DNA from: Nemertoderma westbladi
Taxonomy: Eukaryota; Animalia; Xenacoelomorpha
DNA: 64,000 nt
Direction of reading: 5' to 3'
Assembly (NCBI GenBank): GCA_032718475.1
Contig: JAUCBJ010005043.1
Span: 62,001-126,000 of the forward strand
The notes under the pieces were generated by a model. That model was not told the origin of the DNA and did no database searches. It saw nothing but the letters and a program-made list of their open reading frames with translations. Positions 21,357 through 59,310 of this stretch are shown in pieces. Every line of letters starts with the position of its first letter. Within the stretch, counting starts at the first letter, position 1. The position numbers were made by a program, and so were the translations under genes.

Positions 21357-22571
21357 ACTTTGAATGATAATGAAATATTTTATATCATTATATTATTTGT
21401 TTACCAAGCATTTCGATACAATATATAGCCTACAATATAATATAGCCAGCGGCGTCGAAGTAGCCTACGTCAACGTCAAATATATGCAATTAAAATCGAT
21501 AAGTGGGACACATAATTATTATTTAGCCGCAATTTTTTCGGACTCACTTTTTTTACTTTTTTAATTACTGTGTATTCCCACCTGATTTAATAAATTTCAA
21601 AATAAATATGAAAATGCATTGGATATTATTGTGTATAACAGTAGTTACTTTACAAGATAGTTATTTAACTTTATCTTATTGTGTATTTATTATTTAATAA
21701 TTATAATAAAATAGCTCATTAAATTAATTACTTTATACAACGTATTTTATTTCCGAGATTACTTGTTATTATAGGAGACCAGACCACTATCCCGTGGTGA
21801 ACACAACTGATGCCCTAATTATTTACTAACTTAACAATTAATTACTGTATTGAGTTTTGAATTTTCGTTGTAACAGTAACATTTATCACGGCCATCGAAA
21901 CAAACCGGTCGATGGGAAGCAATTTAAAGCGGAGATTCGATTCCAAATAACTTCAGGCGATAATAAGGGTACAAGGCGATAATGGGTACGCGAATTTGGT
22001 ACCGATGTAACAGCAAAATATGCCTCCCGTGGCATTTTTTCCTAGGAAATAATGCCCCCCCCCCCCTTGGAAATTATGCCCCCCCCCCATGAATTACACT
22101 ATTTTATTGAAGACTGTCTGGCTCTTATGCACAACTGAACCCAGCCTATTAAACAATGAAAGAGACCCCAAACCAACACCAACCATTACTTTGGGGACTG
22201 TTGTTTTGAACGCTTTTATAATATAGGCCCTTCCGCTTATTTTATGAAACGCCTTACAAATTTTTTTTATAAACATTTTTTTTTCATAAATAAGTGAAAC
22301 TCGTCATAAACTCCAAGGGAAAGGAGCAGGCTACAGAGGCAGGCTTTTCTAACCAAAACAATATACAGCCACTTTACCAATTGAGGGAAAGAAGCAGGTT
22401 ACAGATGCGAGCTTTTCGAAGCAAAACAATAAACAATCATCAGTTATAGTCACTCTATAACCAAAAAAATCAGGCAGTCAAGCAAATAGGTACCGGCTGA
22501 CCGGTACGGAGGTGTAGAAAGACAATTAGAAACGGTTGATACAACGGTCCCTAAAGTAACAAGACCCCTGT

Positions 22572-25500: not shown

Positions 25501-25794
25501 ATTCCGTACCGGTACCTTCGTATCTACTCTACATTCAGTACCGGTACCTCCGTATCTACTCTACATTCCGTACCAGTACCTCCGTACCTTCGTATCTACT
25601 CTACATTCCGTACCGGTACCTCCGTACCTTCTTATCTACTCTACATTCCGTACCGGTACCTCAGTACCTTCGTATCTACTCAACATTCCGTACCGGTACC
25701 TCAGTACCTTTGTATCTACTCTACATTCCGTACCGGTACCTCAGTACCTCCGTATCTACTCTACATTCCGTACCAGTACCTCCGTACCTTCGTA

Positions 25795-25833
<39 letters not shown>

Positions 25834-27000
25834 AAACATGAACTATATTATCAAATGAGCAAAAGGCGGGAAATTTAAACCATACAAGGGAATTAAATAA
25901 TATAAAATAATTAAACTGATTTTGAAATTGTTTATGATACCGGTATGAGTTACTGACTCTACTGTCCCACCCTTGTGTCGGCGTTGGCCAGCAAGATGGA
26001 CGGCGATGCTTCTGCCCCAACAAATACTGGGCGTTTCCGTGCCGATCTCGACCCTCTTATGCACATCAGGGAGGCCCGCAGCAGCGCGAAGCTGAACTGC
26101 CTCCGCACCCAGCTCACGCACTCCGAGTAGCGCAGCTCGCGCCGGTCCGCCAGCTTTGAAGCGAGGTGCTTCACGAACAGCGTCGTGGAGGGAGATATTC
26201 CGCCCAACGCTGAGAATATCAGCGAGGTCTACATTCCGTACCGGTACCTCAGTACCTTCGTATCTACTCTACATTCCGTACCGGTACCTCAGTACCTCCG
26301 TATCTACTCTACATTCCGTACCAGTACCTCCGTACCTTCGTATCTACTCCACATTCCGTACCGGTACCTCCGTACCTTCGTATCTACTCTACATTCCGTA
26401 CCGGTACCTCAGTACATTCGTATCTACTCTACATTCCGTACCGGTACCTCAGTACCTCCGTATCTACTCTACATTCTGTACCTCCGTATCTACTCTACAT
26501 TCCGTACCAGTACCTTCGTATCTACTCTACATTCAGTACCTCCGTACCTTCGTATCTACTCTACATTCTGTACCGGTACCTCAGTACCTTCGTATCTACT
26601 CTACATATTCTGTACATATTCTATATTACTGTGGCCTCTTACCTAGCGGATGCTCTCCTTCGCCCTTATTGGCTAATAACCTACTTCACGCCTTTCCACT
26701 CTCTGGGAGTGTTTCCCCCCTACCGCTGGCCCCTGCTAGCTGTCTCACCTTCCGAGGTGGTTTGACCTCTAACCTTCCTTTGTGTGGCTTTGGGGTTTGT
26801 ATTGTCCCCGGTGTTGGTTGTGATACGAGCGTATCTACTCTACATTCCGTACCAGTACCTCCGTACCTTCGTATCTACTCTACATTCCGTACCGGTACCT
26901 CCGTACCTTTGTATCTACTCTACATTCAGTACCTCCGTACCTTCGTATCTACTCTACATTCCGTACCGGTACCTCAGTACCTTCGTATCTACACTACATA
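22572..27000. repeat. 40-bp satellite (CTCTACATTCCGTACCGGTACCTCAGTACCTCCGTATCTA) with 31-bp variants, interrupted by a CRE fragment and a duplicated ~225-bp segment
   Basis: Direct tandem periodicity; each unit contains the palindrome GTACCGGTAC. 26606-26829 is duplicated at about 26998-27222. Confidence 0.95.
25797..26227 (-). mobile_element. 5'-truncated CRE-clade non-LTR retrotransposon with poly(A) tail
   Basis: A T-run at 25797-25829 is the poly(A). The minus ORF SLIFSALGGISPSTTLFVKHLASKLA...YSECVSWVRRQFSFALLRASLMCIRGSR matches the restriction-like-endonuclease C-terminus of metazoan Cre elements. Satellite resumes on both sides. Confidence 0.75.
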
Positions 27001-27609
27001 TTCTGTACATATTCTATATTACTGTGGCCTCTTACCTAGCGCATGCTCTCCTTCGCCCTTATTGGCTAACTACCTACTTCACGCCTTTCCACTCTCTGGG
27101 AGTGTTTCCCCCCTACCCCTGGCCCCTGCTAGCTGTCTCCCCTTCCGAGGTGGTTTGACCTCTAACCTTCCTTTGTGTGGCTTTGGGGTTTGTATTGTCC
27201 CCGGTGTTGGTTGTGATACGAGATTAGTTATTGCTAATCTCGTATCTCCAACATATTGCTGAAAATGTCACTGTCCCATTTTATGAGGATAATGCGGCGG
27301 AATTGAATCTGTTTACAGTCCCCCCCATGCTATCTTCCCGGTGAGAAGATAGCATCATCTACAAGTGCGCTTCAATTTCGCTGGAACCCGGTCTACTATC
27401 GGGTGTGGGGTGGTGTTCTTTTCTCGGAGTCGGCTTTCCAGGCCGCTCCCTCTGGGTATGATATTACTACCCCTTCTTGGTGCAACCGCAACCTATGTTG
27501 CACCAAGACATCTGACGTCTCTGTTCGAGACAATTGTGGACTCCTCTCACACAATTTTATATCTCCTCACTCTAAACTGACTCTAACTTCACTAGCTCCA
27601 CTCTAACTC

Positions 27610-28804
27610 TGTAAAAGCTTTTGCGGATATAACAAGTCATTCTTCTCCGCAATGAACTGTGTAGTTGTTTTAGCGGACATAACAAGCCATTTTCTCCGCC
27701 ATGTACCTTGTAGGTGTTTTAGCGGACATAACAAGCCATTTTCTGCCGCAATACGCCTAATACTCTAAAAGACTGGAACTCCGATGACGAAATCTGTCAG
27801 CTGATTTACTGTACACGTGGAGCCTCTCTTTGTTCAGGCTCAGCCAATCAGAGCGATTTTAATTTTATCTTCATTATCTTCATTATATTTCATTTTACAG
27901 AGGCCTACGGAAAACCGCGCAATGCATTACGGTTTTTGTTTACCTTTTCTGAGCCTCAGAACATCGGCTTTGGAATTCTTCTGTTTTTCGGTAGAAGTTT
28001 CAGACTTTGGCCAACATTAGACGGCTTTGATTATAAGAACGTAAATCTATTATCTGACTGCACTGTGCAACTGTCAACAAACCTGAACAAACTGATGAAA
28101 CTGCACTCACTCAATCCTATTCACCGCATTATTTTACTTCTGTTTCCTGTCTGTTATTAATTGTTATATGTTGATGGATATGTTGTTATATTTGGAGAAT
28201 ACCGATAAATAATCATAAAACCCCAATCTTCTTGATTACTGAAGGTAAGAGGGACCAGTTACCGGTAGCAATTGCGACTTACATTATAGTGGTTTTAGTG
28301 TGAATTAAATGCTATTTCATAATCCCTACATGTGTTAGTTGCTATCCTCCTTATATATGGTCAAATTCAGTGATGGTCGGCAGATCAGTGTGCAGCAGTG
28401 TGAAGTCGTATGCAGCAGTGTGACAGATAATAAAGCATCTCCTAAAGAATGCGCTATTTACGAAAATCAGTAGCCATCCGTGTTTAGTATAAGTCATAAC
28501 TCTGTTTTATACTTAAAGCACCATGTCCTAAAGGAACTGTTAATATTTCCCCGAAAGTGAATAATATTGTCAGAGATTATATAGTAACGATCAATCGAAT
28601 AATACAGTAGGTCTGCAACGCAATAACTTCAAAGCACCCGAATCCAGTCTACCTTAACTGTGGGTGAATGATCGCGCATAGACTGGCTTCGGCTAATGTA
28701 ACTTCATGTGCATTAAATAATTGTTATAGGCTAAAGTCGATTTATAAACAAGAGGACACCTAAAATTGGCAGGTTAAACTGCTAAAGGTCTGAAAGCGCG
28801 AACA
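27610..28804 (+). repeat. 5' LTR (1195 bp)
   Basis: TGTAAAAGC...GCGCGAACA. Differs from the 3' LTR by about 17 substitutions and 4 indels (hand count). Three ~50-bp tandem units (GCGGACATAACAAGCCATTTT) at its start. Confidence 0.95.
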
Positions 28805-30715
28805 ATAATAGATTTATTAGTTTCTTTATTGCACCATAGGCAATAAAGTCGAATGTACCGGTCGGACGGTAACCTGTAGGCCTAACTACCTAACCACCCA
28901 ACCGGTACTTACCGGTACTAGTATTATTTCGATTGTGATATTGTATATTGGTAGGCTGTTTAAGAGATTAGGGACTGTACACCCCTTGTTTCTTTTAGAG
29001 CTTATTTATCTCTGTCAGTTTTATTTATTTGTAGGTGTAATATTGAGCAGAAGGCGTGTAAGCCTGCTCAAATTGTACAAATAATTTGTAGGCTGGATTG
29101 TTGTCTGACTATTGTTGAGTATGAAGCGATTGCAGTGTATGTAGAGTGTATGTCCGATAAAGTACTAGTTAGGAAGGTGGGGGCATCCAGTGCTGTAAGG
29201 TAAATCCCCCCCGAAAGAATAAGTCGTACTACTCGGTTAGAACGCATACTAACTAACCATTTCGGAGTCTGCATATACTGTAGTTTATTTAGGCTTGATA
29301 GTAGTCTGCCAGCGTTTGGTTTGTATTTTGTTTGTATAGTCTGCACGGGTAGCGTATTTATTTATTATTCAGAGTCTATGCGAGTATTCGCAACTTACAT
29401 ACCCCTAAGTTTATTCCTACAGTAATTGTGCTTGTTATACATACCGTTATAGTTAAATTAACCCCGGTACTACATCAGGGCTGCTTGGCGTAGGTAAAGA
29501 CTGGTGATTTTATACTCTAGTCACTCCAGCAGATACCGTGGTTCTTTTGGCTGTACAAGTATATTGAACTGCTGGTTATTTGATGTATAAGTACTTGTAC
29601 CTAATTTAGGGTTTAGTGAACAGTGCTTTCCGAAAATAATTAGTATGTAGGCAGTATATTTGTGTTGTAAAGTGGTTAATAGGCACATTAGCTCTGGTTG
29701 GCTGCGGTAATTAACTTCTAGGTAGGGACACTCCGGGTACATAACGTAGTACTTATAGAGCTGTAGAGCTAAAGACTATAAGTCGTCAGACGGTGGTATT
29801 TTCTTATCTGGACAACGCAATTTATTTACTACTGCTTAATTATTTTCAAATACCGTAGTATCCTGTCCGTTTGTAATAACCAGAAATTCTAACTCCTTGT
29901 TAGGCTGGTTTATAGATTTCTTGTAAAATTACCCTGAAATTTGTACGTGTAACTTTTGGTGTTTATTTAGAAATTGTAATCCTACACAGTAATTGTACGT
30001 AATTTGTAGTAATAAGTAACTTAGTAAAGTAGAATTATTTGTTTTAGTGTCTAACAGGTAGCACTCCACTGAGAGCGTTCCGCGTCTGTGTAGTGACACC
30101 TTACTTGGAAATAATAACATTTATTTCAAATATTGTCAAAAACCCTTGTACCGGTACATAATATATTATAAATCAACTCAAACCGATTTATAAAATAGTA
30201 GGCCTATCATACATCAATTAGGTCTTATTATCAGTTGAACTACTGCTTAATAACAGTAATAAAGTAAAGGAAAGTAATCCTAAAATTCAGAAATTTAGGC
30301 ATCGTAAAATAATTGACATTACCGGTATTTCCGATAGGCTTATTCTATTTATTTCTATAAATTAAGCTGAAATTATATACCGGTATTCTGTAATTAATTC
30401 TAGTCTATAATCATACTTATATATACTATAAGTGTATGCTGTATACCGGTATTTACGGTTGGCTTATTATATATATTTCTATATATTTATGCTTAAATTA
30501 TATACTGGTATTCTGTGACTAATCAGTCCTTGTCTGTAATAATACTTATATATACTATAAGTGTATACCGGTATCCTAATATATTATATATATATATCGC
30601 GTTACATTGAGTAACGATATCGGTAATTAATTACTAGGCTTGCAGTTGATACTGAATTACTAGACTTGCTTTAACTGTCGTTTATAGTAGTAGGCATTCA
30701 ACTGTACAATCAAAC

Positions 30716-33700
30716 ATGGCTGACACAAAGCAAACTCTATCAGATAGTCTCCTAGAAAGAACAGTCTGCGACTCCGACAGGAGTGCCGAACATTTGAGAC
30801 CAAAGTCCAAGTCCCCTCCTACTGTAAGAAAGGTCATCCCTCCAGTAGTAGTATCAGATCCTAGGCTAGTAAAGCACCGTAGGTCTATCATACGCACTTG
30901 GGCTCAAGTCAAGCGGGACAAAGAGGCACCTGTTAAACAGCAGCAACACCCGAACCGAGAACTTATTTCTCAGCGGCTCGATAGCTCCAGTAGTTCAGAT
31001 ACTGTAGAGTTACCCGAGATCGGAGCAAAGATGGCAGAAGCGGTTTATTCAGATCCACTTCTAATTCTTCCTGAAGCCGTACTCACTAGAGTATTGATTG
31101 CGGTGGAGGAACATCAAATCGATTGGGCAAGAAGTAAGCGATCGACCATGGACAGTTATGCGGGATACATGAAGGAGGAACTGAAGTCTATTGTCGAGAC
31201 GCAATAGAACTTCCCCGGACCCGGACTCCCGTTTAACTTATCGGAAGCTGCCTGGGAGGACTTATACAGGATGGGAGTGGTAAAGGACACTAGAGATCCA
31301 GCTGTGTGGAAGAGGTCGGCAGCAGGATATGTACAGGGATTCTTCAGCTCTTTGGAGCGATTAGAGGAACAACTGTTTCAACAACCCCAAGGACCTCAAG
31401 AGCAGGGAGAGCTGCTTTATCAAGTTCGAGAACGAATCCTAAGAATCAGACTAATCCTTTCAGCCTTTGAGGAAGCCTCGAAGAGAAGCCAAGACACGTC
31501 GTTGCAAGTCGCCGTAAAGACTTGGTTCCAACGGGTGAGTCTTAAAGTCAAAGGAACAACCTAATGGAAAATTCAGCTAACTGAGCGCGCGATCCACGGA
31601 GAATCAACAGACGCTACCTTTTCTCAGGTGGAATGCAACGTTACATCAGAGAAACCTCAGAAGAAGGACGCTATTGACATCTATCTGTCGGACTATCAAC
31701 GATTTATAAGTGACAAAGAGTTGAGGAGACGGCTAGCTGGACTTCACCCTACTAGTGAGGGAGCCAAGTTTGTGTTGGACTCATTAGATACGGAAATGTT
31801 AGCCGCGGACCAGGCTAAATTTGATGAAAGCATCCGCATCGCTAGGGTCCAAGAAGAACAGTTAAAGAAAAAACGTATAGAAGACCGAAAGGCAGCAGCA
31901 GCGGCAGCGGCAGAAGTTGAAAGAAAAGCGGCAGCGGCAGCGGCATAAGCGGAAAGAAAGGAGGCAGAAGCTGAAGGAAAAGCTGCAGTGGCAGAGGCTG
32001 AAGGAAAAGCTGCAGTGGCAGAGGCAGAAAGAAAAGCGGCAGTGGCAGAGGCAGAAAGAAAAGCGGCAGCGGCAGAAGCAGAAAGAAAAGCGGCAGCGGC
32101 AGAAGCGGAAAGAAAAGCGGCAGAGGCAGAAAGAAAAGCGGCAGCGGCAGAAGCGGAAAGAAAAGCGGCAGAGGCAGTGGTAGAAGCAGAACGGAAAGCA
32201 TCTGAAGAGACAACCCAACTAGAGTTGGAAAATCTTCAAGAGAAGCCAGACTACTTCAATAAACAGAGAACAGCTAGTCAGTGGCAGATGATAAGTCGAT
32301 CTACTCCCAAGAGACAGGGATTTACATCATCTGATGAAGGCGATACAACAGATCCTGAAGGCGGAGGAAATAGATCTCGTTCCAGCAGATGTAGAAGAAC
32401 GCCCCACTGTCAGAAATTGCCTAATTTGCCCCCAGCTGTGAGAAGGCAACTAGCTAGTGCAGACTTAGGTAGTACAGAACACACAGACCAAATTATTAGA
32501 GTAGAAAGACTCCCTACTATAGTAGATGAGCCTGAAATAATTAGGCCTGTTCTCGAAGCCACCCCCTCTGTGATGGAGACCCCTGTACTTCCAGAACCTA
32601 ACTCAAAATTCCCTTTGCACAGTACTAAACTACCTGTGCCCAGTAGGACAGTTCCTGAGTCAATTCCGGTCCTGGACGCCGAGCGAGACATTAACGATTT
32701 ATCGCCCGTCGTCCCTCGTCTACCCGCTACTATGTTGGCGGCTCCCGCTTTGGCGGTAGAGTGGGTGGATGAGCGACGGCGGGGGATGGATCTCCTGCTC
32801 GGGCAGATGGAGGAACATCGGGAACGTTCCTCCTAACAGGTCCGGGAGTTGGAGGGGACTGTTCAACAGTTAAAGGGAACAGTAAGAGAAGGTAGGTTAG
32901 AGTTGCAAGAAGTGCAGCAGAGTATCGCTTTAGAACTCGATAAATTGGTAAATCTACAAAGGGGTATACCACCACCCCCTGTAACAATGTGTCAACCTGT
33001 TAGGTCTGAAGTATTTCATGCGCAAGGTGTGGAGCCTACACGCATCTATACTGCTAGTGAAGTAGAAACTCCTATAGTAAACCCTATCAAGGATAATTAT
33101 AAACCTGTTGATAATGATATTCCATATAGACCTGATCATAATCCGAGAAATTTATATACCGATAACTCGATATTAAATAATACGATGGCCCAAGAAAGTT
33201 TTATGCGTCAAATGGCTAGAACCGAAGCCCGTCAAGCGGTAAAGGTGGGAGAGATCATCAAGTTCAATGGAGATGAGATGAAATGGTTACCTTTTAATGA
33301 ATATTATAAAGATAACATACAGAACTCTGTACTATCTAATGGAGAGAAACTTAGATTCCTCATCGAGTGCTTGGAAGGACCCCCCAAGTTAATGGCGTTA
33401 AAGTTTATTGGACATCCAGATGGATTGCGACAAGTTTGGGATACACTAAACATCAGGTATGGTAATAGGACAAACATAGCTAGGTATTTGTATGCGAAAT
33501 TAGTAGCGCCCCGAAAGTTCCTTAGCAGCGGGATTATAGAGTTTTCCGATGAGATTCAGGAGATTTGTAGACAGTTAGATTGGTTAGATAAGTCTCATGA
33601 ATATCAGAGTTCCATGGTTATTGGAGCCGTAGCATCTACTTTGCCAAAGGGTGGAGTAGGTACTCGTTGGGACAAAAGAGTTCTCTATATGATGGACCAG

Positions 33701-36606
33701 CAACAAAGAGACCCTACCATGGCTGATCTCATGTCATTCTTAAATGGAGAGGTAAGATTACAGCTCCTAAAACAGTCCCGAGAGAAGACACCGGAAAATA
33801 AGGTAATTGAAAAACCCATTTCTAGGAGAAAGGTCACCCCAGTATGTTATACAGATGACGGCGAAAGCCAAACCTCTCAAGAGGAGAACAGCGGGAAAGA
33901 CACTGAAAGATTTTACTATGTCAACAAAGCACCTAAAAACGTAAGTAAATTTAAGTCTCGAATCAGTGACAGGAGAGAACAGGTAACAAAAACTCCTCCT
34001 ACGTCTCCTAAGAGAATTCATGGAAGAAAGCCCGAGGAAAGAACGAGTGTGCACAACACTACCCAAGGTAAAGTAAGTAACATCAAACCAAAATGTGCAT
34101 TGTGCGTCGGGCCCCATCGTTTAAGTATGTGTGATGAATTCTTAAAGAAATCCTTAAAGGATAGACGCGATGTCATGTGGGATAAGCGGTTGTGTTATAA
34201 TTGTCTCAGACAAGGACACCAACGGCGAACCTGTTACTCCGACACGAGGTGTGCTAAGTGCTAAGCTAACATCATATCTTGCTGCACACTGAATTTGAAA
34301 GAACCAGCCCGAGTCAGGTAAGCGAGTCCGAACTACATGTCCAGTTCAGTGATGTGAACGACACTGACCACAGTTCTGAGATGGAAGGATTTTACACGGA
34401 CGAATTCTCCGACGAAAATGAATCCTGTTATATGATAAACACCGCGGTGTATCGAGCACTTACGTATGAGACTGAAACCGATAAAGAAGCGCACCCGACT
34501 ATTCCTGACCGACAACCATCTTGGAAAGCGCCAACTTCCAATGTTGGAATCCGGGAATTCCCTGTAGTTCAGCTGAGAGTCCATGGATCAGGTAAGAGTT
34601 TTATAGTCAACGCCGTCCTGGACTCTGGCAGCACAGGAACATTCATCGACAAAGAACTAGCCAAAGACATCTTTGCTGGACAACCCAAGTTCCGAACTAA
34701 GTTGAACCTTTCAGGAATTATGCAGGTTTGGAAATCTACAGTAGCTACAGACTACTATGTAGGCGCGTTGTCCACCCCTCAGGACGAACTAGGAGAACAT
34801 AGCATAAGGTCAGTAAAAATGGTGGCGATAAAGAACTTTGCTACCAGTCAAGTAGAACCTTACAACTGGGATGAAGACGATTTTACCCAGCAACATAATA
34901 TCCCTAGATTCAACACCGACTACCCAGGGGTGCAAATATTGATCGGCCAAAATGCGCATGAGGCGCTTGAGACATTAGAGAAACGGCCTGCTCGACCGCA
35001 ACCATTGCAAACCTATGCGGGAAGAACTAGAGTAGGTTGGTACTTCACTGGACCTTCCCATAGAACACTCATGGAAAGATTACCTGCCGAACAAATACAT
35101 CAGGTGAGTGAATGGGAAGAAGAAATCAGTGAGGGAGAGATCACACCTGAGGGAACACCATACTCCTCAGATAACGACGATATTACCCAATTATTTGACG
35201 AGGAAAATACAATCGACCTCCTCACTGAAAGTGAAGCTTGGAGAAACCAAGTGCACCTGTGCCATCTCATCAATCATGACGGACAATTAGACTACAATGA
35301 CAAGCTAAATGAGGTGATAGATCGACACAATGCTAAGATTCACGATGAACACGCCGTATGATTCTTTACTCAAGAAGCTGTAGAGCCTAATTCCTACGAC
35401 AAAGCACTATCGGTCGAGGAGGAAAGAGCCAAGCAGATCCAGGAAACAACTACATGTTTTCTTAAAGATCAAGGTAGGTATGAGATTGGTCTGCCATTCC
35501 GACGGCAAGAACCCAACTTTATAAATAACCGACCCTTGGCGGAGAAGAGAATCGCGCAACTACATCGGCGCCTTACGGCAAATGCTTCAGCTAAAGAGAT
35601 GTATAAGACCCAGCAGAAGAAATTCATCGATAAGGGATACGCGGAGCGAGTACCGGAAGAAACACCCATAACTGAGAGAACGTATTATCTAACACATCAT
35701 TACGTTCCCAAACCCGGTAAACCCAACAAAGTCTGGGTAGTATTTGACGGCTCCGCCCTTTACATGGGCCAATCCCTTAACTCTGAGTTGTTGCCGGGAC
35801 CCAACTTACTCCAATCCTTGTTGGGAATACTCTTAAGATTACGGCAATATTCGATCGCCTTCGCCTCGGATATAGAAGGCATGTTCTTACAAGTTAAGGC
35901 GCTGGATAGGGATCGAGACAGCCTACGATTTCTGTGGTGGTCTGAAGGAGACCTCAACCAAAAACCGGTGGAGTACTGGATGACCATCCAGGCTTTCGGG
36001 ATCATCTCGAGCCCCCGAACGCTTGTTCAGTAGTGCGCACCACTGCTGATGACAACCGAGACGCCTTCTCTAAAGCGGTTATTGACAACATCAAACGGGA
36101 TATATATATGAACGACAATTTAAAGTCCCTCCCATCGGTGGAAGAAGCCATTGATGTTGCCAAGGGAACGGTAGAGTGCTTGAAACGCGGTGGATTTCGA
36201 CTAACTAAATTCACAAGTAACTCCCGTGAGTTTCTGGAATCGATTATCCCGTCGTTTCGCTGACCATTTCGAAAAACATTATCTGCCTACGCTACAACTT
36301 CGAACCAAGTGGTTTGCGCAGCAAGAAAACGTCAGCGCCGGAGACATGGTCCTTATTGTGGAATCAGATCTTCCACATAAGCGGTGGCAAACAGGTCGTA
36401 TCATCGAGACTCATATCTCCGATGATGGTTTAGTGCGATCAGTAGAACTCGTCGTCATGCGAGGTAACTTTAAGAAACCTGGAATTGCAACTCAATCGCC
36501 CAGTTGGTCGTTTATGTTTACTGGAAAGAGACAGAGAACTATCCGGAAACTATGGAAGGCAAGATACTCTTCCCACGACCACCTCCCTAATCCAACAAAC
36601 ATCTAG
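30716..36606 (+). pseudogene. BEL/Pao gag-pol pseudogene (long N-terminal extension, gag, 3 zinc knuckles, aspartic protease, RT, integrase C-terminus; RNase H and integrase core deleted)
   Basis: ORFs 30716, 31271, 31628, 31988 and 32849 share one frame, separated by single stops. Motifs: FNGDEMKWLPF (DUF1759-like gag); CALCVGPHRLSMC / CYNCLRQGHQRRTC / CAKC..HHILLH; AVLDSGS protease; GRYEIGLPF; VVFDGSA..SLN..LLPGPNL; DIEGMFLQV; YMND (degenerate YxDD); HYLPTLQLRTKW..GDMVLI..DGLVRSV (IN C-terminus). Frameshifts near 34270 and 36015; deletion junction near 36250. Confidence 0.93.
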
Positions 36607-37934
36607 GGACTCCCCAACGTAACAGCGTCTGGAGTGGGTGTGTGACTATGTTATTTTATATTTGTTTTTATTATTTTTATATTTATGTATATATTATTAT
36701 GTAATTTTATTATAATCGTTTTCTTTAATTTTATTTAGTAGAATGTTATTTTAGCGATTATTTAGTAGGATTAGTGCCATATATATTCGTGTTAATTACT
36801 TAATTACTTATATTATATATTTAGTGTAACGGCGAGAAATAATTATTTTCTCTTTCCTTACTGTCCGTATCATATTATAAATGCGTGACTACAGTAAGAT
36901 GAAATATCCGTACTTATTAAAGTACAATAAAGCTCGTACTATACTCAAGTATTATTGGTGAGTAGAGTATTAGGAATGCAAAGTTCAGATCCTCGTGTCT
37001 CGGCTAAACCAAGCTCTAGGTAGACCTTGGAAACGACTTGCCTCTTCTCACTGACATTGCTTCTTGCAATATTGCTCTCATACCGTATATTAAATAATAC
37101 ATATAGTAGCGTGATGTCCCTTTAACAGTAGCGTACAACACAAAATAAATCTGTTAAACCCTTTGACCATCTGTAATTCTAGTCGATTAAGATATCATGG
37201 CACCCACCGATATACTTGAAAGACAAAACTCTAGAATCAGTGGTTAACGTCCCCAGACAATTCCCAGACGGAGATTCACCCTAAGTATATTAGTGTGAGA
37301 GAATCTCCAATATATAGTCAATAGCCGATAAAATTCATAAAATCATGTATAAGGGGGAATATTGACAATTAAAGAATTACTATTAAATAGCATCCCAGAT
37401 CTGTATGCATGAGAATTACCCTAATTCTACTGCTAGCTTTCCATAATTTCACCATAGCAACAACCACGCTAGAATTAGAAGCGAGTTAAAAGAACAATAG
37501 AAAGCTTGCCTCATTGAATAGCATACGGAATAAATAGCGCACTGCTAGTATCCAAGGATACATAATAATAACGTGGCATTCTGGAAGGCACTTGACTAAC
37601 GGACAAATGGCGTGAATGTGTACAATTTGTGACAGTTGTGTAGAATTTGTGCGTTTATAGGTGAATGTTGCTACTAAAGTGTGTTTACAGTAGCTAGTCG
37701 CAGTTGTGAAAGTAGCCCAACCTCTGCAGTAAGAACCTGAAGTAAATCTAAGCCCTTGGGACGGACAGTGGAGTGACTCGCGCTGGTTATTGTTGTCGTT
37801 GTGTAGCTACTACGCTGGCGATAGGCACCGCGACAACAGTACATCGGCGCTGAGGATCTTGCGCTGTCCGGGGGCAGTGAGGGGTAGGCAGCGACGCCCG
37901 CTAGCCTAATTATAACTAATTACAATATTGATAA

Positions 37935-40900
37935 ACTCATATAGCAGCTATTACTGAGTTGATAGAAGATAATCTTGGTATCAGGGAGCGATATACCCTA
38001 CCGTTGCAAGCGTTTGTTGATAGCCTAATACGCGGCGACGCTAGTCCCACTACTACGGAGGACGATGGCCGTTATATCGAACTGCCAATGCCCAAGGAAC
38101 AACTCACGCGTGAATTGGACTATAGAAAATTCACCGCTCGCTACACGCATCGTAATGGTACGTATATGGACTTCTTAACCACTGGCCATCCTATCGATTT
38201 ACACGATACGGACGATGTAGACACTGAAAGGGAAATGGTTCTATTTAAATATCATACCCAGCGGAGTTGGAACGATAACCCGAGAATCGAACATGAGAAT
38301 TCTATTCGAAACCGACTCGAAAGAGAAGACGTTGAAGAGCCGGATAAACGCAGCGACTTCAACGAATATCTGGAATTCTTGAGAGAAACATATCTCAATA
38401 TTGCCAGCCAACAAAATCTAGAAACTCGATATCCTCAAGGTATACATCACGACCCTATGATAGAACTCAAACGGCTCTTTTTCACTATGATGTATCTTAC
38501 CGCCGATCGACCGCTACCTGTCGTCCCGGATAGCTTCGAACAGATGGAGGAATATTGTAAAACTGGAGAACGATCACCCGCGTTTCCCCTACAAGACGTG
38601 CGTCTTTGATATTATTGCGATGAATGCCCTAGACCCAACCAGCAAACGGAAAGACATAAACATCCGCGGAGACGTTGCGCTAAACACAGTTTTACTCGCT
38701 ATACTTACGGGAGTTTCGAGCGAAACTTGTTCGACGTATCACCTACGCTCGCTCGACTCAAACGATCCTTAAATAAACCCATGATCAGAGTTCCGGAATA
38801 CTCGGTCAGACCTCCTCACTCCCTAGTGAGACCTCAAACTCTTGATCCTAATAGTATAACGGATCCTCCTGAACTGTACTCACTGTTCAAAGATCTTGTG
38901 TTACCCGAACAATTAATCGGTGGCACTCCGGTAGTGGGCTCGCTAGATATTCACCCCTCCTACCTAGCCGGATTGGGACGCGGACATCTAATATTGCCGT
39001 TGAACCCGTACAATCGTCCCGGTTTAACCCCGATACAACCCGTCACCGAAGTCGAGGAGAGCGTTGTACGAAACGCGTTAGACGCTATTCGGCAGAAGAT
39101 CGGAAAAGGAACTTATGATTGTTTAGAGAAACGCAAATTGCAGCAACAAGTCCAAGCGGTGAAGGAGTTGGCCTTACCCCAGTTCGATCGAGAAATCCAG
39201 AACCTCGAGGAAGACATCGAACTTGGACGAACCTATTCTCTACAAGAGTTCTTAGACGAACGCTTACAACGACAAGCGGAGGAAAATCAGCTCGAGGAGA
39301 AACACATCGAAATGGATGAGAGAGAAGAAGCAGCATTAGCCCAACCAGAAGCTCAAATCCTTATGACTGATCTCTACTCCAAAACCATCATTCATCCCTC
39401 GATGGTTCCCCATTTCGGAGACAAACTCTTCGCAACGGTACAACCCCAACCAGTTGATATCAACCTAAGATCTCGAGATCTTATCGCTGACGCTCCTATG
39501 TTACAGCATCCGCCAATCGAGGCCGCTCGTGTCGACGGTATACTCGTTGATCCTCCGGACAATCGAGCGGATCTTGTCCGTCGTATGGTATATGAGGTCA
39601 ACATACGCGCTAGACCTTTACCGAACTCGTTTTATGGGATCAAGATCACCCTTATTATGTTAATCTAACTCAATATTATATGGTAAAACCGGAAGATCCT
39701 ACACATAGTCTAGGGTTTCTACCACTAATAAATCCTCTCGATCTTGTCGAACTCGAACAACTGCAGAAACATCTGGATCAGTTAGTGAAAGTAAACTCAT
39801 TCAGAAAACCCTACAATGTTTCCAGAATAGAGAAAGATATACTGCCTCCGTATAATCTCGATGGATTTATCAAAACTCGATTAGTCCACTGGAATCTCGA
39901 CGTATTATTTGAGGAAGAGAGAATACAACGATATGGAGATGTAGAGACGTATACTACACAATATCTAAAGTATAGGGATCTACCCAACGCTAGCGAATGC
40001 GCCACCTTAAGGCATCCGGTAGGGATGACCCTAGAAAACGCCACTAAAGAGTGGAATGAAACTCTTAACATTATCGAAATGTATGGAGTTGTCACTTACG
40101 ATAACGAAGGTAGCGTTCCGGTTGGAGAACTGGGAACTACGTGCATGATACATATACGTGGACTAGCTGGTTCTACCCACGTGTTTACTCGAGCGTGTTC
40201 CGACGTGATTGATTATTCTTTTGAGACCCTCACCAAGATACAAAAGAAACTCCGTCATGGACAATTCGAACTCGCGCAGCGTTACGTCACCGACACCGAG
40301 TGCAAACCGGCCATGGGTATCGATGGATCGATGTTACCCCAGCCCGTGCTCGAGATGTTGTTTAACGAAAGAATCCTTAAAATCGGCTCAGCTGTTTATG
40401 GAGATCTCCAAAACGACTTGAGGAACATGGAGAATATCCCATATCCTTTCGTGGATACTCAGCTGATTGCTCCCTGCCCAGAAGGCCGAGGTTTCTTCCG
40501 AACTATGTATGCCAATACACCCAGCGGCATCAATAAAGTACAACGAACCTCCATCGGACATCTTGCCTTTCAAGAATACGGATGGAATTTCAAAGTCGGT
40601 AACCCTATCAACTATCAACAAGTATATGGAGATCATTATTCTCGATTATACTTCGACGGACCATTGACCGCATCTGGCGTCGTGTATAGCTTCATGAGTG
40701 TTCCACTTCGTCCCTCATTAGCTATATACACTATCTTCGAGAACGCTGCACTTGCCGGTTGGCTAGCCGATGTGTGCAGTCGTACTATACGCGCCCATCC
40801 CTTAATACTTGGAACCAAACTCGCCAAGCTAGATGAACACAATAAATTCATCCGCTTCGAATGCTTTAGGCGCTTTCTGACTCCGTTCCGTAACGTTGAT

Positions 40901-42190
40901 AGTCAGTTCAAGGACCGTGCTCTGACCAAGCTCAGCCTAAGAGACTCAGCTGCTGAGAAGTTAGACAGCGCTGGATTCGCCATTTTCAAGGACGTTTGTA
41001 TACAGAACTTACATTCCTCTGTTATACAAAGACCTCGAATCCCCACGGGTTATTCTATCGTGGAAGTTCAGACAGTGGGTTCGCTTGAGGAGACAGCCAC
41101 ACCTACCTCAGCTATGCAATTGGAAGACGAACCAATATGCTTAGAATCCGAGGAGATTCAGCCCACAGCGCCCCGGAGCAGTGACAACGACTACGTCCTG
41201 GAATGGTATCAGGGTCCACAATGTCTCACCGTGTACGATTATCGGCATGCCAATTATGTCTCTAGGAAACGTTGCCGATTATGTGCATCTTGAGACCATT
41301 TCACCCCTGTGGACTCCAACGTACCATGCTCCTACTTCCATAAACAGCCTACGATGGAGATCTATTGTGTGTATTGTAGACTCAATAACTTGCACATTTT
41401 CGCAGTCTGCCCCCAATTTATGACTCAATGCCATCATTGTCAGTTTAAAGGACATGCAAGTTTTGATTGCCCTTTCAACAGCGATCTGGAAAGCGTAGAT
41501 GAAATGATTACCCTACGCTACATTCGAGCCTGGGAAGCGAACGCGGATTTACATTATGAGTCACGTCATCGCTATTACCCTGGACGTGCCTACGAAGGAG
41601 TTTATGTGTTCCACCCGTTCCACCCACAAAAATCTCGCACACCGAGTTACGAACTAATGAAGCGTGTTGGCGAGAATATTTCGACCAAATTTGTTCGTAA
41701 ATATCTCAGGAACATTAATCCCAACGATCTTAATTCCTATAACTTGATAAACTTCATTCGTCAAAATCCGGAATATGGTGACTTGTTCATCAACTCGCAT
41801 CCAGAACTACAGGAAGTTCATAGACGACCCTATGAATATAGAGCCCGAGAACGCGAGTTAGAAAGAACCATCAAACCGAGGAAATTTCTCACTACTCACG
41901 GTCCACCTACCGCTCTCGTGCAGACGACTCGTCAGGGACCAGTAAGAGCTGCTGTCCTGAAACGCGCTCTGAAGGTTGTTCGACCTCGTTCCACTGAGGT
42001 TGATATCGATCAACCGGGTACCTCGACCGGCGGATACACCGACCGTAATCCTAAACCTTCCGATGCAATTGTATTGCACCCCTCACCTAGGAGTTATAGC
42101 CCTCCTAGTAAAGTGGCTCGCCCCAAAGAGAAAAGGACTCTTGCTAGCCTCAAAAAACTGTGTAAATGCCGTTCACGTAAGAAAGACTAA
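37935..42190 (+). pseudogene. Accessory ORF2 of the BEL element: ~1,400-aa protein with N-terminal Cys/His cluster, coiled coil, DEDDy-type 3'-5' exonuclease and three C-terminal CCHC knuckles
   Basis: ORFs 37959 and 38727 are one frame (TGA at 38607). A frameshift near 39625 leads into 39680 and 41309, which are one frame (TGA at 41291). Exonuclease motifs: VVTYDNEG, LPQPVLEMLFNERILKIGSAVYGD, FVDTQ, SIGHLA..YG, PLRPSLAIYTIFE. Knuckles: CRLC..*DH...C, CVYCRLNNLHIFAVC, CHHCQFKGHASFDC. Confidence 0.8.
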
Positions 42191-42268
42191 CTGTTTAGAG
42201 TATTTTTATATTTTAGAAACTGTGATTTTTTATATTTTATAGAATTAAATCCCATTTTCTGGGAGCGG

Positions 42269-43436
42269 TGTAAAAGCTTTTGCGGATATAACAAGTCATT
42301 TTTCTCCGCAATGACTGTGTAGTTGTTTTAGCGGACATAACAAGCCATTTTTTCCGCCATGTACCTTGTAGGTGTTTTAGCGGACATAACAAGCCATTTT
42401 CTGCCGCAATACGCCTAATACTCTAAAAGACTGGAACTCCGATGACGAAATCTGTCAGCTGATTTACTGTACACATGGAGCCTCTCTTTGTTCAGGCTCG
42501 GCCAATCAGAGCGATTTTCATTTTATCTTGTACAGAGGCCTACGGAAAACCGCGCAATGCATTACGGTTTTTGTTTACCTTTTCTGAGCCTCAGAACATC
42601 GGCTTTGGAATTATTCTGTTTTTCGGTAGAAGTTTCAGACTTTGACCAACATTAGACGGCTTTGATTATAAGAACGTAAATCTATTATCTGACTGCACTG
42701 TGCAACAAACCTGAACAAACTGATGAAACTGCACTCACTCAATCCTATTCACCGCATTATTTTACTTCTGTTTACTGTCTGTTATTAATTGTTATATGTT
42801 GATGGATATGTTGTTATATTTGGAGAATACCAATAAATAATCATAAAACCCCAATCTTCTTGATTACTGAAGGTAAGAGGGACCGGTTACCGGTAGCAAT
42901 TGCGACTTACATTATAGTGGTTTTAGTGTGAATTAAATGCTATTTCATAATCCCTACATGTGTTAGTTGCTATCCTCCTTATATATGGTCAAATTCAGTG
43001 ACGGTCGACAGATCAGTGCGCAGCAGTGTGAAGTCGTATGCAGCAGTGTGACAGATAATAAAGCATCTCCTAAAGAATGCGCTATTTACGAAAATCAGTA
43101 GCCATCTCGTTGTGTTTAGTATAAGTCATAACTCTGTTTTATACTTAAAGCACCACGTCCTAAAGGAACTGTTAATATTTCCCCGAAAGTGAATAATATT
43201 GTCAGAGATTATATAGTAACGATCAATCGAATAATACAGTAGGTCTGCAACGCAATAACTTCAAAGCACCCGAATCCAGTCTCCCTTAACTGTGGGTGAA
43301 TGATCGCGCATAGACTGGCTTCGGATAATGTTACTTCATGTGCATTAAATAATTGTTATAGGCTAAAGTCGATTTATAAACAAGAGGACACCTAAAATTG
43401 GCAGGTTAAACTGCTAAAGGTCTGAAAGCGCGAACA
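42269..43436 (+). repeat. 3' LTR (1168 bp)
   Basis: Direct repeat of 27610-28804, followed by the AACTC TSD. Confidence 0.95.
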
Positions 43437-44559
43437 AACTCCACTCTACTCTATCTTACTCTCGGACCTCTCTGTCCCTTACTCTCCCTCTTACTCGCCC
43501 CCCACATTTGAATTGCACTCGTCTACATTCTGTGCACCAACACCTTCTCTCCATACTTTCCTCATACTCCTCTCATTTTGCCCTCACTCTCCACACCTGT
43601 GGTCCCATCAAGTGCCCCTCCTACTCATATCCCGGTAGTGCCCATCTGGACGATTCTTATCCCGCAGGATACGAGCTTTCACAATAAATCCTGAACTCCG
43701 CCCTGTTGTTTAATGACCACACACTTATCCGGTCCCACACATGTGTGCACCATGTTAGTGGGATCCGTCTAAGTCTCGTCCTGCTATTCTAGTCAATTAG
43801 TCCCCAGTCCCAGTAGCTAATTGGAAAAAGGTTGTATTTGACTACAGTATATATTATATAATATATACGAATTATATATAACAATTAATTATTATACAAT
43901 TATACATTATATATATATATATTATATTATATGCTCGTCTACATGACGCGCCTTAACCCCCCCGCTCGGAGGTGATATGACTCGTCACTCCCGGTCTCGC
44001 CCGTTTCATTCTCTCTCCGCCTTTCTCGTCTGGCGACTTCTTCCAGTCGCTTCTCCTCAAGTCTATCCGCTTCCAACTTCTCCCACCTCTGATATGGTGT
44101 ATCCACCTCCCTGTCTACTAGATGCCGGCTGTTGTATTACACCGACTTGCCCTTCAGCCCCGGGTGGTCTACCAGACCTTCGAAGGCCACCTTGAAGGCT
44201 CTTCTGTAGTTCGGGGGTGATCCTGATATTCTTAATTTTATTTTATTCTACCCATGTTCCCCCTGTCTGCGCTATTATCCTATCTACCTTTCTACGTGTC
44301 ACCCTTAGTGCCCGCAACTTCCATGGTACTATGTGCCCTACTAATATGTGTACCCAGTACCCTGCTATGTACCCCTCTCTTACTACGTGGCGCTTTCAGT
44401 GCCCACAACCCCTCTGCTACTACTTCTACGGTATATTGTGCTCTCTACTCTCTTACTGCTAACTCTACTAACTCTCCAACTCTACTAACTCTCTATCTCT
44501 ACTAACTCTCCAAATCTACTAACTCTCCAACTCTCTAACTCTTACTAACTCTTACTAAC

Positions 44560-45084
44560 GGTACTATGTACCCTCTTAGTCTTACTCCCTAACTCTAACT
44601 TTACTAATGGTACTACGTACCCTCTTACTCTGTAACTCTAACCCCACTAACGGTACCACGTACCCTCTTACTCTCTTACTCTAACCCCACTAACGGTACT
44701 ACGTACCCTCTTACTCTCTAACTCTAACCCCACTAACGGTACTACGTACCCTCTTACTAACTAACTCTAACCCCACTAACGGTACTACGTACCCCCTTAC
44801 TCTCTATCTCTAACCCCACTAACGGTACTACGTACCCTCTTACTCTCTAACTCTAACCCCACTAACGGTACTACGTACCCTCTTACTCTCTAACTCTAAC
44901 CCCACTAATGGTACTACGTACCCTCTTACTCTCTATCTCTAACCCCACTAACGGTACTACGTACCCTCTTACTCTCTAACTCTAACTCCACTAACGGTAC
45001 TACGTACCCTCTTACTCTAACCCCACTAACGGTACTACGTACCCTCTTACTCTTTATCTCTAACTCCACTAACGGTACTACGTA
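44560..45084. repeat. ~43-bp tandem repeat (CTAACCCCACTAACGGTACTACGTACCCTCTTACTCTCTAACT)
   Basis: About a dozen direct units, read from sequence. Confidence 0.9.
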
Positions 45085-45109
45085 CAGTAGGTACGTAGTA
45101 CCATTAATG

Positions 45110-47873: not shown

Positions 47874-48328
47874 CAATCACAAAAGGTTACACGGGCGACT
47901 AAATATTGTGGAGTAACTAACTTCAACATACTGTATGCCAAATCAATGTTTGGTTGCTGGTTCGAATCCCTGAAGATGGACCGCGAAAACAGATCCTAAG
48001 GGAACCTCTTAAAACACATTACTTATTATCCTTATTATAATCCCAGGTGCATGACCTCACTTGTTAATTACCGGCTGCAGGCGACCATAAATGGGCACAA
48101 ATAGACACCGTCAATATTCAATAATAACTATTTAGGACACGGAAAACAATGGGATTTCTTACCGATGACCGCGAGATGTATAATTTGCCGAGTGAGGCTA
48201 ATTACACATCAAGCAGTTGTAAGCAAAACTTTGTTTTAAATAAAATACGTAATTCTTTTTCTACAAAATTGCCTTTGCTCCTCACTTTTTTCCCTTTGTT
48301 ATTCCCCTGGCTCGCGTGTAAGGTAATA

Positions 48329-48750
48329 TTATATTGAGTGGTGGAACATTGTATATTGACTAATGTTAATTAAACGAGTTAATTAAGCTCGACGTCATTG
48401 TTTGATATACAAAGTTCCATTACATCTGTTTTACATTTGTTTGAACTTCTGTGCATTCATTACATTACATATTATCTCGTGTAACTAGAAAAGGGTATAA
48501 AATTAGAAAAGGATATATAATTAGAAAAGGATATATAATTAGAAAAGGATATATAATTAAAAAATGATATATATAATTATATATCCTTTTCTAGTTACAC
48601 GAGATAATATGTAATGTAATGAATGCACAGAAGTTCAAACAAATGTAAAACAGATATAATGGAACTTTGTATATCAAACAATGACGTCGAGCTTAATTAA
48701 CTCGTTTAATTAACATTAGTCAATATACAATGTTCCACCACTCAATATAA
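48329..48750. repeat. Long inverted repeat / foldback element with ~165-bp arms
   Basis: 48329-48494 is the reverse complement of 48586-48750, with one visible mismatch. The spacer is made of TAGAAAAGGATATATAAT tandem units. Confidence 0.9.
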
Positions 48751-49280
48751 CATGACTTTACATCGCGCTAATAATAGCACCGGGCCGCGACGCCGTGGAT
48801 TACTTTACAATTCGCTTTCAGGTAAGTTCACGCTGTCGCCATGAATACGCGGTGTGACCGATAGCACCATTTAAACGAAATATAAGAAACGCAAATAATT
48901 ACGATTATTGACTTTAGGATTTAGATATTAGGTGCAATATAAGTAAATGGTACAAATAAATCAATATATTTCAAGGTAAAGATTAGCAAATTTCAGGAAC
49001 ATCAGTTGCCTTTGTTTCACCTTTCCTATCCAATTATTTGTTGGTCCAATCTATTCCTGGCAGTCGGTTATGAAGAGGATAAAAATTGCAACTTTGAGGA
49101 ATCAGGATAATATTCGCGTCCATTTTGCGGTTATTTATATACAAGCCTAATGAAGGAGAAATACTTACGCCATGTCAGTGGCAAAAACATGATACCAACC
49201 ATTATTACTGTAATTAAGTAGGACTATAATTAAATACTTAATAAAAAATAGTTGAAATTGTATATAGAAAATTGTTTTTG

Positions 49281-50808
49281 GAGCACTCGGGAAGGGCCAT
49301 AGTGTTGGTGGAGCACTCGGGAAGGGCCTTGGTGTTGGTGGAGCACTCGGGAAGGGCCTTAGTGTTGCTGGAGCACTCGGGAAGGGCCTTAGTGTTGGTG
49401 GAGCACTCGGGAAGGGCCTTAGTGTTGGTGGAGCACTCGGGAAGGGCCTTAGTGTTGGTGGAGCACTCGGGAAGGGCCTAGTGTTGGTGGAGCACTCGGG
49501 AAGGGCCTTAGTGTTGGTGGAGCACTCGGGAAGGGCCTTAGTGTTGGTGGAGCACTCGGGAAGGGCCTTAGTGTTGGTGGAGCACTCGGGAAGGGCCTTA
49601 GTGTTGGTGGAGCACTCGGGAAGGGCCTTAGTGTTGGTGGAGCACTCGGGAAGGGCCTTAGTGTTGGCGGAGCACTCGGGAAGGGCCTTAGTGTTGGTGG
49701 AGCACTCGGGAAGGGCCTTAGTGTTGGTGGAGCACTCGGGAAGGGCCTTAGTGTTGACGGAGCACTCGGTAAGGTTCTTAGTGTTGGTGGAGCACTAGGG
49801 AAGGAACTTAGTGTTGATGGAGCACTCGGGAAGGGCCTTAGTGTTGGTGGATCACTCGGGAGGGCTTTCGTGTTGGTGGAGCACTCAGGAAGGGCCTTAG
49901 TGTTGGTGGAGCACTCGGGAAGGGCCTTAGTGTTGGTGGAGCACTCGGGAAGGCCTTAGTGAGGTGGAGCACTCGGGAAGGGCCTTAGTGTTGGTGGAGC
50001 ACTCGGGAAGGGCCTTAGTGTTGGTGGAGCACTCGGGAAGGGCCTTAGTGTTGGTGGAGCACTCGGGAAGGGCCTTAGTGTTGGTGGAGCACTCGGGAAG
50101 GCCTTAGTGAGGTGGAGCACTCGGGAAGGGCCTTAGTGTTGGTGGAGCACTCGGGAAGGGCCTTAGTGTTGGTGGAGCACTCGGGAAGGGCCTAGTGTTG
50201 GTGGAGCACTCGGGAAGGGCCTTAGTGTTGGTGGAGCACTCGGGAAGGGCCTTAGTGTTGGTGGAGCACTCGGGAAGGGCCTTAGTGTTGGTGGAGCACT
50301 CGGGAAGGGCCTTAGTGTTGGTGGAGCACTCGGGAAGGGCCTTAGTGTTGGTGGAGCACTCGGGAAGGGCCTTAGTGTTGGCGGAGCACTCGGGAAGGGC
50401 CTTAGTGTTGGTGGAGCACTCGGGAAGGGCCTTAGTGTTGGTGGAGCACTCGGGAAGGGCCTTAGTGTTGACGGAGCACTCGGTAAGGTTCTTAGTGTTG
50501 GTGGAGCACTAGGGAAGGAACTTAGTGTTGATGGAGCACTCGGGAAGGGCCTTAGTGTTGGTGGATCACTCGGGAGGGCTTTCGTGTTGGTGGAGCACTC
50601 AGGAAGGGCCTTAGTGTTGGTGGAGCACTCGGGAAGGGCCTTAGTGTTGGTGGAGCACTCGGGAAGGCCTTAGTGAGGTGGAGCACTCGGGAAGGGCCTT
50701 AGTGTTGGTGGAGCACTCGGGAAGGGCCTTAGTGTTGGTGGAGCACTCGGGAAGGGCCTTAGTGTTGGTGGAGCACTCGGGAAGGGCCTTAGTGTTGGTG
50801 GAGCACTC
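49281..50808. repeat. 30-bp satellite (GAGCACTCGGGAAGGGCCTTAGTGTTGGTG) with a 714-bp higher-order duplication
   Basis: Tandem units; an identical variant pattern appears at 49481 and 50195. Confidence 0.96.
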
Positions 50809-58739: not shown

Positions 58740-59067
58740 CTGTGGATGAAACAATAAGACGGTATAATAAAACATGGATAGTCTGAGAGACACGGAAAGC
58801 CGTCAACCCAATCCATCTGTTATAAAACGGGAGGATTAAATAAAATGGTTGGATAGTTACAGCGTGTTCAACCCTGGAGATAGAATGGAGTCATTCCTGC
58901 TAATATGATCTACCAAAGTTGGGAGCCTTCGGGTTGCCTCTGGTGTCTCACATTCCATTCACATTAGTCCAAACAATAATTAATACTATATCTATATAGA
59001 AATAAAGAAACAGAAAGAACCCAAAAATCACTTGTTACTAGACAGGAGCCAACCCAGCACAACTTAC

Positions 59068-59310
59068 CTCAACCGTAAAATTACGGAAAAAGTCCACAAT
59101 ATCTTGGCATTTTGGCCTAAGACGATAGTAAATGATGAATGGAGTGAAGATAGGACTGAGAAGTTCCTCCAAGTAAAAGGTAGCTTTGTATTGGAACAGC
59201 TGACTGAACTCCGACCGGACCTTGTCGGTGTGGGCACGTCCGGTCCAGGAATCGTCCGCGTAATGGATGTGAGACTTTATCGCTTGTAGAATACCTTCCG
59301 GACACCACAC
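59068..59310 (-). CDS. ATG9: ATG9 exon
   Basis: VWCPEGILQAIKSHIHY...EFSQLFQYKATFYLEELLSPIFTPFII...IVDFFRNFTVE, a hallmark ATG9 segment; CAG acceptor and GTAAGT donor; 243 nt. Confidence 0.96.

Follow-up and report, generated by a model that had tools for sequence, protein, structure and literature searches.

A BEL/Pao retrotransposon of Nemertoderma westbladi carries a large accessory gene with a predicted DEDDy exonuclease-like domain and an altered active site

The DNA analysed here (the window) is a stretch of 64,000 nucleotides from contig JAUCBJ010005043.1 of Nemertoderma westbladi. It contains a BEL/Pao long terminal repeat (LTR) retrotransposon of 15,827 bases (~15.8 kb, LTR to LTR). 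This identity, proposed in an earlier reading of the bases alone (the sequence-only reading), was borne out by the LTR pair, a target-site duplication (TSD), a DUF1759 domain in gag, a DUF5641 domain in pol and the likeness of the reverse transcriptase (RT). The RT piece matched 49 proteins among 868 candidates at 29–49% identity; most were annotated with PF05380, PF03564 or PF18701, and the best named ones came from Amphiura, Ciona and Lineus. In the env position, bounded by the stop of pol at 36606 and by the purine tract ahead of the 3′ LTR, lies a second open reading frame, ORF2, which is the subject of this report.

ORF2 is made up of four same-strand frames (37935–38609, 38610–39668, 39614–41293 and 41294–42190); an in-frame TGA stop parts them at two of the three joints, and a frame change near 39640 at the other. 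The frames were present as first described, with an expected product of about 1,400 residues; they span ~1,418 codons and would together encode one protein. The start is uncertain, the first in-frame ATG in this copy lying at 38088. ORF2 is not env, as had also been claimed, because no 19-residue window exceeds a hydropathy of 1.19. The best two windows reach 1.07 and 1.19, no transmembrane (TM) stretch is present, and no Pfam glycoprotein family matched ORF2. The exonuclease-like domain is followed by three Cys/His clusters that resemble weak zinc knuckles, with a PF13917 match of 20.8 bits that lies under the 27-bit cut-off. Of the exonuclease and zinc-knuckle combination claimed earlier, a DEDDy-type domain and knuckle-like motifs were thus recovered, and the knuckles stayed below the family threshold. 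Over the N-terminal 570 codons, Pfam and NCBIfam were blank except for one match at E 0.075. This unassigned part holds a cluster of Cys and His residues as well as a charged stretch that resembles a coiled coil (38616–38690 and 39130–39340).

No relative emerged from direct sequence searches. By BLASTP, none of the 49 pol relatives resembled ORF2 at E ≤ 0.01. The exonuclease region had no match among PDB sequences at E ≤ 10, none among 3,217 candidates in a word search (protein lengths 471–1,502 only), none in IMG/VR, and no relative at E ≤ 0.001 among 1.84 billion protein representatives (phmmer). Plasmids and phages yielded four and one non-significant matches, respectively, at E 6–10, one of them an RNase D.

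The middle part of ORF2 is predicted to be a remote DEDDy (RNase D/WRN/EXD) exonuclease-like domain, on which ESM Atlas, NCBIfam and an ordered-block test agree. The first Atlas match was a PF01612 cluster at 0.92; 25 of 30 matches were PF01612, and the 10 best named matches all belonged to one family or clan. When PF01612 clusters were set aside, only scores of 0.85 or lower were left. Two RNase D models were the only families matched among 18,950 in NCBIfam (E 0.003 and 0.025); the first, TIGR01388, scored 16.8 bits against a curated cut-off of 299. A reference profile was built from RNase D and Egl/EXD1-like domains, 95 of 166 being kept at <65% identity. Our hidden Markov model (HMM) of these 95 domains gave 7.9 bits for the stretch from ExoII to the DTQ motif (P 1e-4), and none of 1,000 shuffles scored as high (maximum 6.4). 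Seven family blocks in order scored 41.3, compared with −10.8 ± 6.9 for 1,000 shuffles (maximum 14.3; z 7.5) and with BEL/Pao polyproteins, of whose 344 windows the best reached 15.6. The query window of this test was picked after the motifs had been seen, and the controls were of equal length. Reference members scored at least 52, in-sample.

A structural model guided by an alignment with 86 reference rows reached a predicted local distance difference test (pLDDT) value of 64 and a predicted template modelling (pTM) score of 0.63. It resembled the structures of RNase D, diDNase, Rrp6, Nibbler, Egl, EXD2 and WRN, the best being 1yt3 (Z 13.7, root-mean-square deviation 3.3, 172 residues). These matches show compatibility only, because the alignment itself supplied the fold and the comparison is circular.

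The ExoI and ExoII aspartates (40100 and 40403; residues are named here by window position) and the DTQ motif lie where the sequence-only reading had placed them, and the blocks built on the family stand in order well above the shuffle maximum. The same reading had set ExoIII at Tyr 40727 with Glu 40739 as the last acid. Two adjacent segments both fit the pattern of Pro-Leu, six residues and Tyr. In the block scan, the register from 40646 scored −1.8 and the register from 40688 scored −9.7, third among those listed; hhalign and MAFFT chose the same register as the scan, with Tyr 40685. The register with Tyr 40727 and Glu 40739 was therefore rejected as weaker. In the guided model the first segment forms helix 221–230 and the other the next helix, with the Glu at the helix end.

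In the best alignment, ORF2 agrees with the family at the Asp and Glu of ExoI, at the Asp of ExoII and at DTQ, and also at Pro-Leu and Tyr 40685. The fourth Asp, which stands four residues after the ExoIII Tyr in 85 of 86 references, is Ser 40697 in ORF2, and the ExoII His present in all 86 RNase D/Egl-like references is likewise a Ser. Under the two-metal mechanism the ExoIII Asp is a ligand of a catalytic metal, and because of this role its replacement would abolish or strongly reduce cutting. As far as the alignment is correct, Ser at the fourth acid favours an inactive domain.

Conservation of ORF2 was assessed in contigs from four public DNA runs, all from a single organism and representing no more than three samples from three studies; one of the runs may be the source of the window. 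Contig pieces over 37600–42260 numbered 25,500 (run X1), 19,459, 9,158 and 364, and all 30 bins of this interval were filled in each of the four runs. Run X1 held 4,297 pieces at 99% identity or more and 3,143 under 90%; this wide spread implies many diverged copies, although contig depth is not a copy number. The data support ORF2 as family-wide cargo of a many-copy BEL/Pao family, and the one-off insertion that would have undone the original proposal was not what we found. The frame change near 39640 was not common to most contig depth in any of the four runs, and the two TGA stops were not among the 40 of 1,183 difference rows listed. Contigs ran on from the ORF2 stop to the purine tract, 65–80 bases separating the stop from the tract and LTR, and the share running on into unlike sequence was zero in three of the four runs. 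Some contigs in runs X1–X3 skip ~2,530 bases (joints 39301/39310 to 41837..41840) and lose the exonuclease domain and the knuckles; this ~2.5-kb skip (39301–41840) marks a deleted subfamily.

Variation among the copies, for which a selection analysis had been suggested, was mostly silent. In 40560–40790, 39 differences reached a share of at least 15%; 33 were at third codon positions, 32 were silent and 7 non-silent. The ratio of non-silent to silent polymorphism (pN/pS) was 0.07–0.09 over 40592–40760, an estimate drawn from 231 bases, one reference copy and related contigs. Across the whole of ORF2, 19 of 35 listed coding rows were silent, the listing favouring positions at which this copy departs from the majority. 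Mostly silent variation indicates that the ORF2 protein is kept by selection, at least in the ExoIII region, where clear purifying selection was shown. In the four runs, Tyr 40685 and Ser 40697, like Tyr 40727 and Glu 40739, are altered by no common variant; the Ser is therefore not damage of this copy.

The coordinates of the element and of the motifs in ORF2 are collected in Table 1. Window self-BLAST found a single long direct repeat pair around ORF2 (27610–28805 and 42269–43437, over 1,200 columns). Both LTRs run from TG to CA, ending at 28804 and 43436, and AACTC stands outside each. They differ by 19 substitutions in 1,165 ungapped columns (Kimura two-parameter distance 0.0165). The pol remnant has one stop and frameshifts and has lost ~740 codons near 36245, namely the rest of RT, RNase H and the integrase core. 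At this point the match to full-length relatives, P0005 for example, jumps from residue 1031 to residue 1771, a deletion of ~2.2 kb, and both sides were seen in four of the seven relatives tried. A complete pol (protease, RT and RNase H, plus integrase) is thus missing from this copy, which is a defect of the copy and not the mark of a different element class. With five in-frame stops and two frame changes in gag-pol, besides the deletion of ~740 pol codons, this copy is dead. The damage in 30656–36606 seems heavy for LTRs only 1.7% apart, and the copy may have descended from an already defective parent.

Table 1. Features of the BEL/Pao element and of ORF2, in window coordinates.
Feature	Coordinates	Strand	Basis or remark
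Target-site duplication, left copy (AACTC, 5 bp)	27605..27609	.	Sequence flanks
5′ LTR (TG..CA)	27610..28804	+	Self-BLAST, 95.5% to 3′ LTR
12-nt LTR segment complementary to bases directly after 5′ LTR (possible self-primer)	28042..28053	+	
Primer-binding position, without usual TGG start; pairs with 28042–28053	28805..28816	+	
gag (DUF1759, knuckles), four in-frame stops	30716..34264	+	PF03564 E 1.6e-11
pol remnant: protease-like, RT N-terminal part, integrase C-terminal DUF5641	34270..36606	+	PF18701 E 3.9e-19
Non-coding spacer pol–ORF2, AT-rich in first part	36607..37934	+	
ORF2, ~1,400 codons	37935..42190	+	Broken at 38607–38609, near 39640 and at 41291–41293
ExoI motif (Asp 40100, Glu 40106)	40088..40111	+	
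ExoII motif (Asp 40403) and DTQ motif (40454–40462)	40346..40462	+	TIGR01388, own HMM
Best-register ExoIII motif (Tyr 40685; fourth Asp position taken by Ser 40697)	40646..40702	+	
ExoIII look-alike (Tyr 40727, Glu 40739), next helix in guided model	40703..40741	+	
Three Cys/His clusters, zinc-knuckle-like	41273..41460	+	PF13917 E 0.00036, 20.8 bits
Purine-rich tract ahead of 3′ LTR	42259..42268	+	
3′ LTR	42269..43436	+	Self-BLAST, ends read
Target-site duplication, right copy (AACTC)	43437..43441	.	Sequence flanks

The leader (28805–30715) measures 1.9 kb. A 12-nt match between LTR and primer site was reached by 7 of 5,000 shuffled LTRs and by none of 243 control positions; the match amounts to a self-priming signature, and a TATA-like word immediately precedes the LTR segment. 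An Ala/Glu/Lys-rich repeat occupies 31860–32220 in the extended N-terminal portion of gag. Shortly past the pol stop, at 36627–36663, a run rich in purines leads into TG and looks like the true junction of tract and LTR, and a 19-nt stretch in this region is 84% like 42219–42237. The run and TG are perhaps a relic of an ancestral 3′ end that predates the gain of the cargo. With this purine run and TG the start of the spacer also looks like an old LTR start, but the spacer shows no likeness to the LTR, nor to the leader. Rfam gave one chance-level match (E 0.13).

Elsewhere in the window, an exon-like frame lies on the minus strand at 59038–59466, which we take to resemble ATG9; if so, its presence suggests that a host gene lies close to the element or contains it. 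Large tandem arrays were observed at 13400–16400, 22500–27000, 44500–45100, 49100–50700 and from 59850, with units of 19, 40, 43, 30 and 44 bases, and long inverted repeats at 48317–48762 and 13123–18628.

DEDDy cargo in LTR elements is already known; what appears new here is its presence in BEL/Pao, the size of the gene, its divergence and the altered active site. The accessible text of Rodriguez, Kenefick and Arkhipova (2017, PMC5408684) describes DEDDy ORF3s in the bdelloid LTR elements Juno and Vesta, and also in Athena/Terminon, with intact residues and unknown function. Like those ORF3s, ORF2 is a non-env DEDDy gene after pol without a TM domain; the ORF3s are less close to host genes than to a mobile pool, and some have Cys/His motifs. 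Unlike them, ORF2 has ~1,400 codons and three knuckle-like clusters, its fourth acid is Ser whereas their invariant residues (DEED) are intact, and its likeness is remote whereas theirs to known families is strong; this comparison is by description only. Juno and Vesta are not named as BEL/Pao in the accessible part of that paper, and the bdelloid cargo recurs without BEL/Pao in the accessible text of PMC6431247 and PMC6338049.

BEL/Pao elements are described in the accessible text of de la Chaux and Wagner (2011, PMC3118150) as 4.2–10 kb long, with gag-pol and rarely env, in agreement with the canonical layout assumed by the sequence-only reading. The present element shares with them the DUF1759 gag, the pol order, DUF5641 and 1.2-kb LTRs; it differs in its length of 15.8 kb despite a ~2.2-kb pol deletion and in its non-env cargo gene. 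The word “exonuclease” does not occur in the main text of PMC3118150, and no such cargo appears in the accessible parts of PMC3985635, PMC8220671 and PMC13524379. Our literature search, whose scope lay outside Repbase, GyDB, subscription journals and supplements, found no paper on a BEL/Pao exonuclease gene and no cargo gene of this kind of comparable size; Repbase entries could list this layout. The novelty first claimed accordingly holds for BEL/Pao within that search, and not for LTR retrotransposons at large, given the cargo described in the accessible text of PMC5408684.

Among cellular proteins, ORF2 resembles the PF01612 group (RNase D, Rrp6, NrnC, WRN-exo, EXD2 and Nibbler) in the order ExoI-ExoII-DTQ-ExoIII with Tyr. 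It departs from that group in the missing fourth Asp, a ~35-residue insertion after strand 2 and a longer loop before ExoIII; it also stays below all curated cut-offs and has no HRDC match. A specific link to EXD1, Egl, Mut-7 or WRN, which had been proposed, found no clear support: the ExoII His column of the Egl/RNase D-type references is Ser in ORF2, no sequence matched at E ≤ 0.001, and structural ranks were tied or biased. The Lys-x-Gly form of ExoII in ORF2 presumably stands closer to WRN, EXD2 and Mut-7 than to Egl. Capture of a host exonuclease was not upheld either, with no relative in the protein search above and with giant-virus proteins as the nearest Atlas clusters. The latter are a lead only, as the Atlas tool itself warns that they are no sign of transfer. 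An Egl-like viral domain gave no significant BLASTP match to ORF2. A DnaQ-like protein in a giant-virus record (L003:1-1845) ends in an Egl/EXD1-like domain, whose closest matches include proteins with an S1-like tail.

The explanation we favour, at somewhat less than an even chance, is that the ORF2 protein binds RNA but is catalytically crippled, and that it keeps hold of the element's own RNA in packaging or transport. ORF2 would then be an accessory gene in which knuckle-like motifs accompany a DEDDy exonuclease-like domain that retains three catalytic acids out of four. One product of ~1,400 residues would be made from a separate transcript, and cutting would be lost or strongly reduced for want of the ExoIII Asp. 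By analogy with Egalitarian, EXD1 and Exuperantia, we infer that RNA may be bound through the exonuclease cleft and the knuckles and that its target may be the element's own RNA. Non-catalytic use of the fold is plausible because hosts took the same path in these proteins, which share the fold class and function without catalysis. According to the accessible text of bioRxiv 10.1101/2025.08.03.668247, mutation of all five catalytic residues leaves Egl functional, and EXD1 and the Exu of Drosophila bind RNA but are inactive. As described there, these are host genes and not element cargo, and Egl keeps all four acids.

Several points weigh against this explanation. ORF2 has no Pfam match to PF01612, so that the Pfam check foreseen for the domain came back empty; the first Atlas match shared 164 features, under the 170 typical of same-family matches; and hhalign gave a probability of 19%, or 1.7% against a five-sequence profile. 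The AlphaFold check fared no better when unaided, with a pLDDT of 33, and a VIA search with that model was uninformative (best Z 5.9, unrelated). About 900 residues of ORF2 carry no assigned domain. The best ExoIII block scores only −1.8, which makes the register the best available and not a certain one; Glu 40739 is also kept among copies and might replace the missing Asp; an active enzyme would likewise be expected to retain D, E, D and Y; and the base of the selection estimate is narrow. The motifs might even be a chance or convergent likeness in a domain that is not a DnaQ fold, as the lack of Pfam, PDB-sequence and phmmer matches and the poor unaided fold would allow, the confident model having been guided by RNase D-like rows in a circular way. 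With Atlas, NCBIfam and the ordered-block test concurring under their controls, we regard this as very unlikely.

The main rival accepts the domain and takes it for an active 3′-5′ exonuclease with a rearranged site, in which Glu 40739 or solvent replaces the ExoIII Asp, trimming a replication intermediate, for example a self-primer, processed at its 3′ end after being cut from the transcript of the element, or the cDNA ends. Three acids and the Tyr are kept, Glu 40739 has no non-silent variant among copies, and the 12-nt self-match takes the place of the TGG tRNA site, so that the primer end may need processing; 3′-end processing was also proposed for the bdelloid DEDDy ORFs (Rodriguez et al., PMC5408684, accessible text). 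Block scan, hhalign and MAFFT nevertheless all put Ser at the fourth acid, and the guided model places Glu 40739 where the following helix ends, which leaves an active enzyme unlikely in our view, though a serious competitor. We find it quite improbable that ORF2 is an anti-silencing effector that binds or trims piRNA or siRNA or competes with host proteins of the EXD1 or Mut-7/Nibbler type. Host relatives of the fold do act in small-RNA pathways, the family has many diverged copies, and the accessible text of PMC5408684 raises the possibility of higher copy numbers for Juno1/2 with a DEDDy ORF; the same text reports no unambiguous copy-number correlation, the Z values of the guided model against EXD1 and Nibbler (9.5–12.0) are within the range of other DEDDy folds and show no particular likeness, and the single region tested is strongly conserved, with nothing in it to suggest an arms race. 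ORF2 as a neutral passenger, or as part of a separate element nested in this copy, would be compatible with the contigs that skip the exonuclease domain and with contig coverage that was assessed from 37600 onward, past the pol–ORF2 junction (36606–37600). This we consider scarcely probable, given that variation is mostly silent, that contigs continue from the ORF2 stop into the purine tract, 65–80 bases from tract and LTR, and that no terminal repeats of a nested element were found. Extending the RNA-binding explanation, it is possible but doubtful that a successful BEL/Pao lineage acquired a DEDDy nuclease, whose source may have been a viral or mobile pool and not the host, and made of it a large inactive RNA binder with knuckles, a counterpart of Egl and EXD1 that carries element RNA to the germ line or jams the piRNA machinery.

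Few accessory proteins besides env are known from animal retrotransposons. The bdelloid DEDDy cargo was reported in 2017, and no function has been assigned to it in the literature found. DEDDy cargo under selection in a many-copy BEL/Pao family suggests repeated acquisition by unrelated LTR groups and a general benefit. If the native domain binds without cutting, that benefit would be RNA handling or interference with silencing, as in Egl, EXD1 and Exu, rather than trimming.

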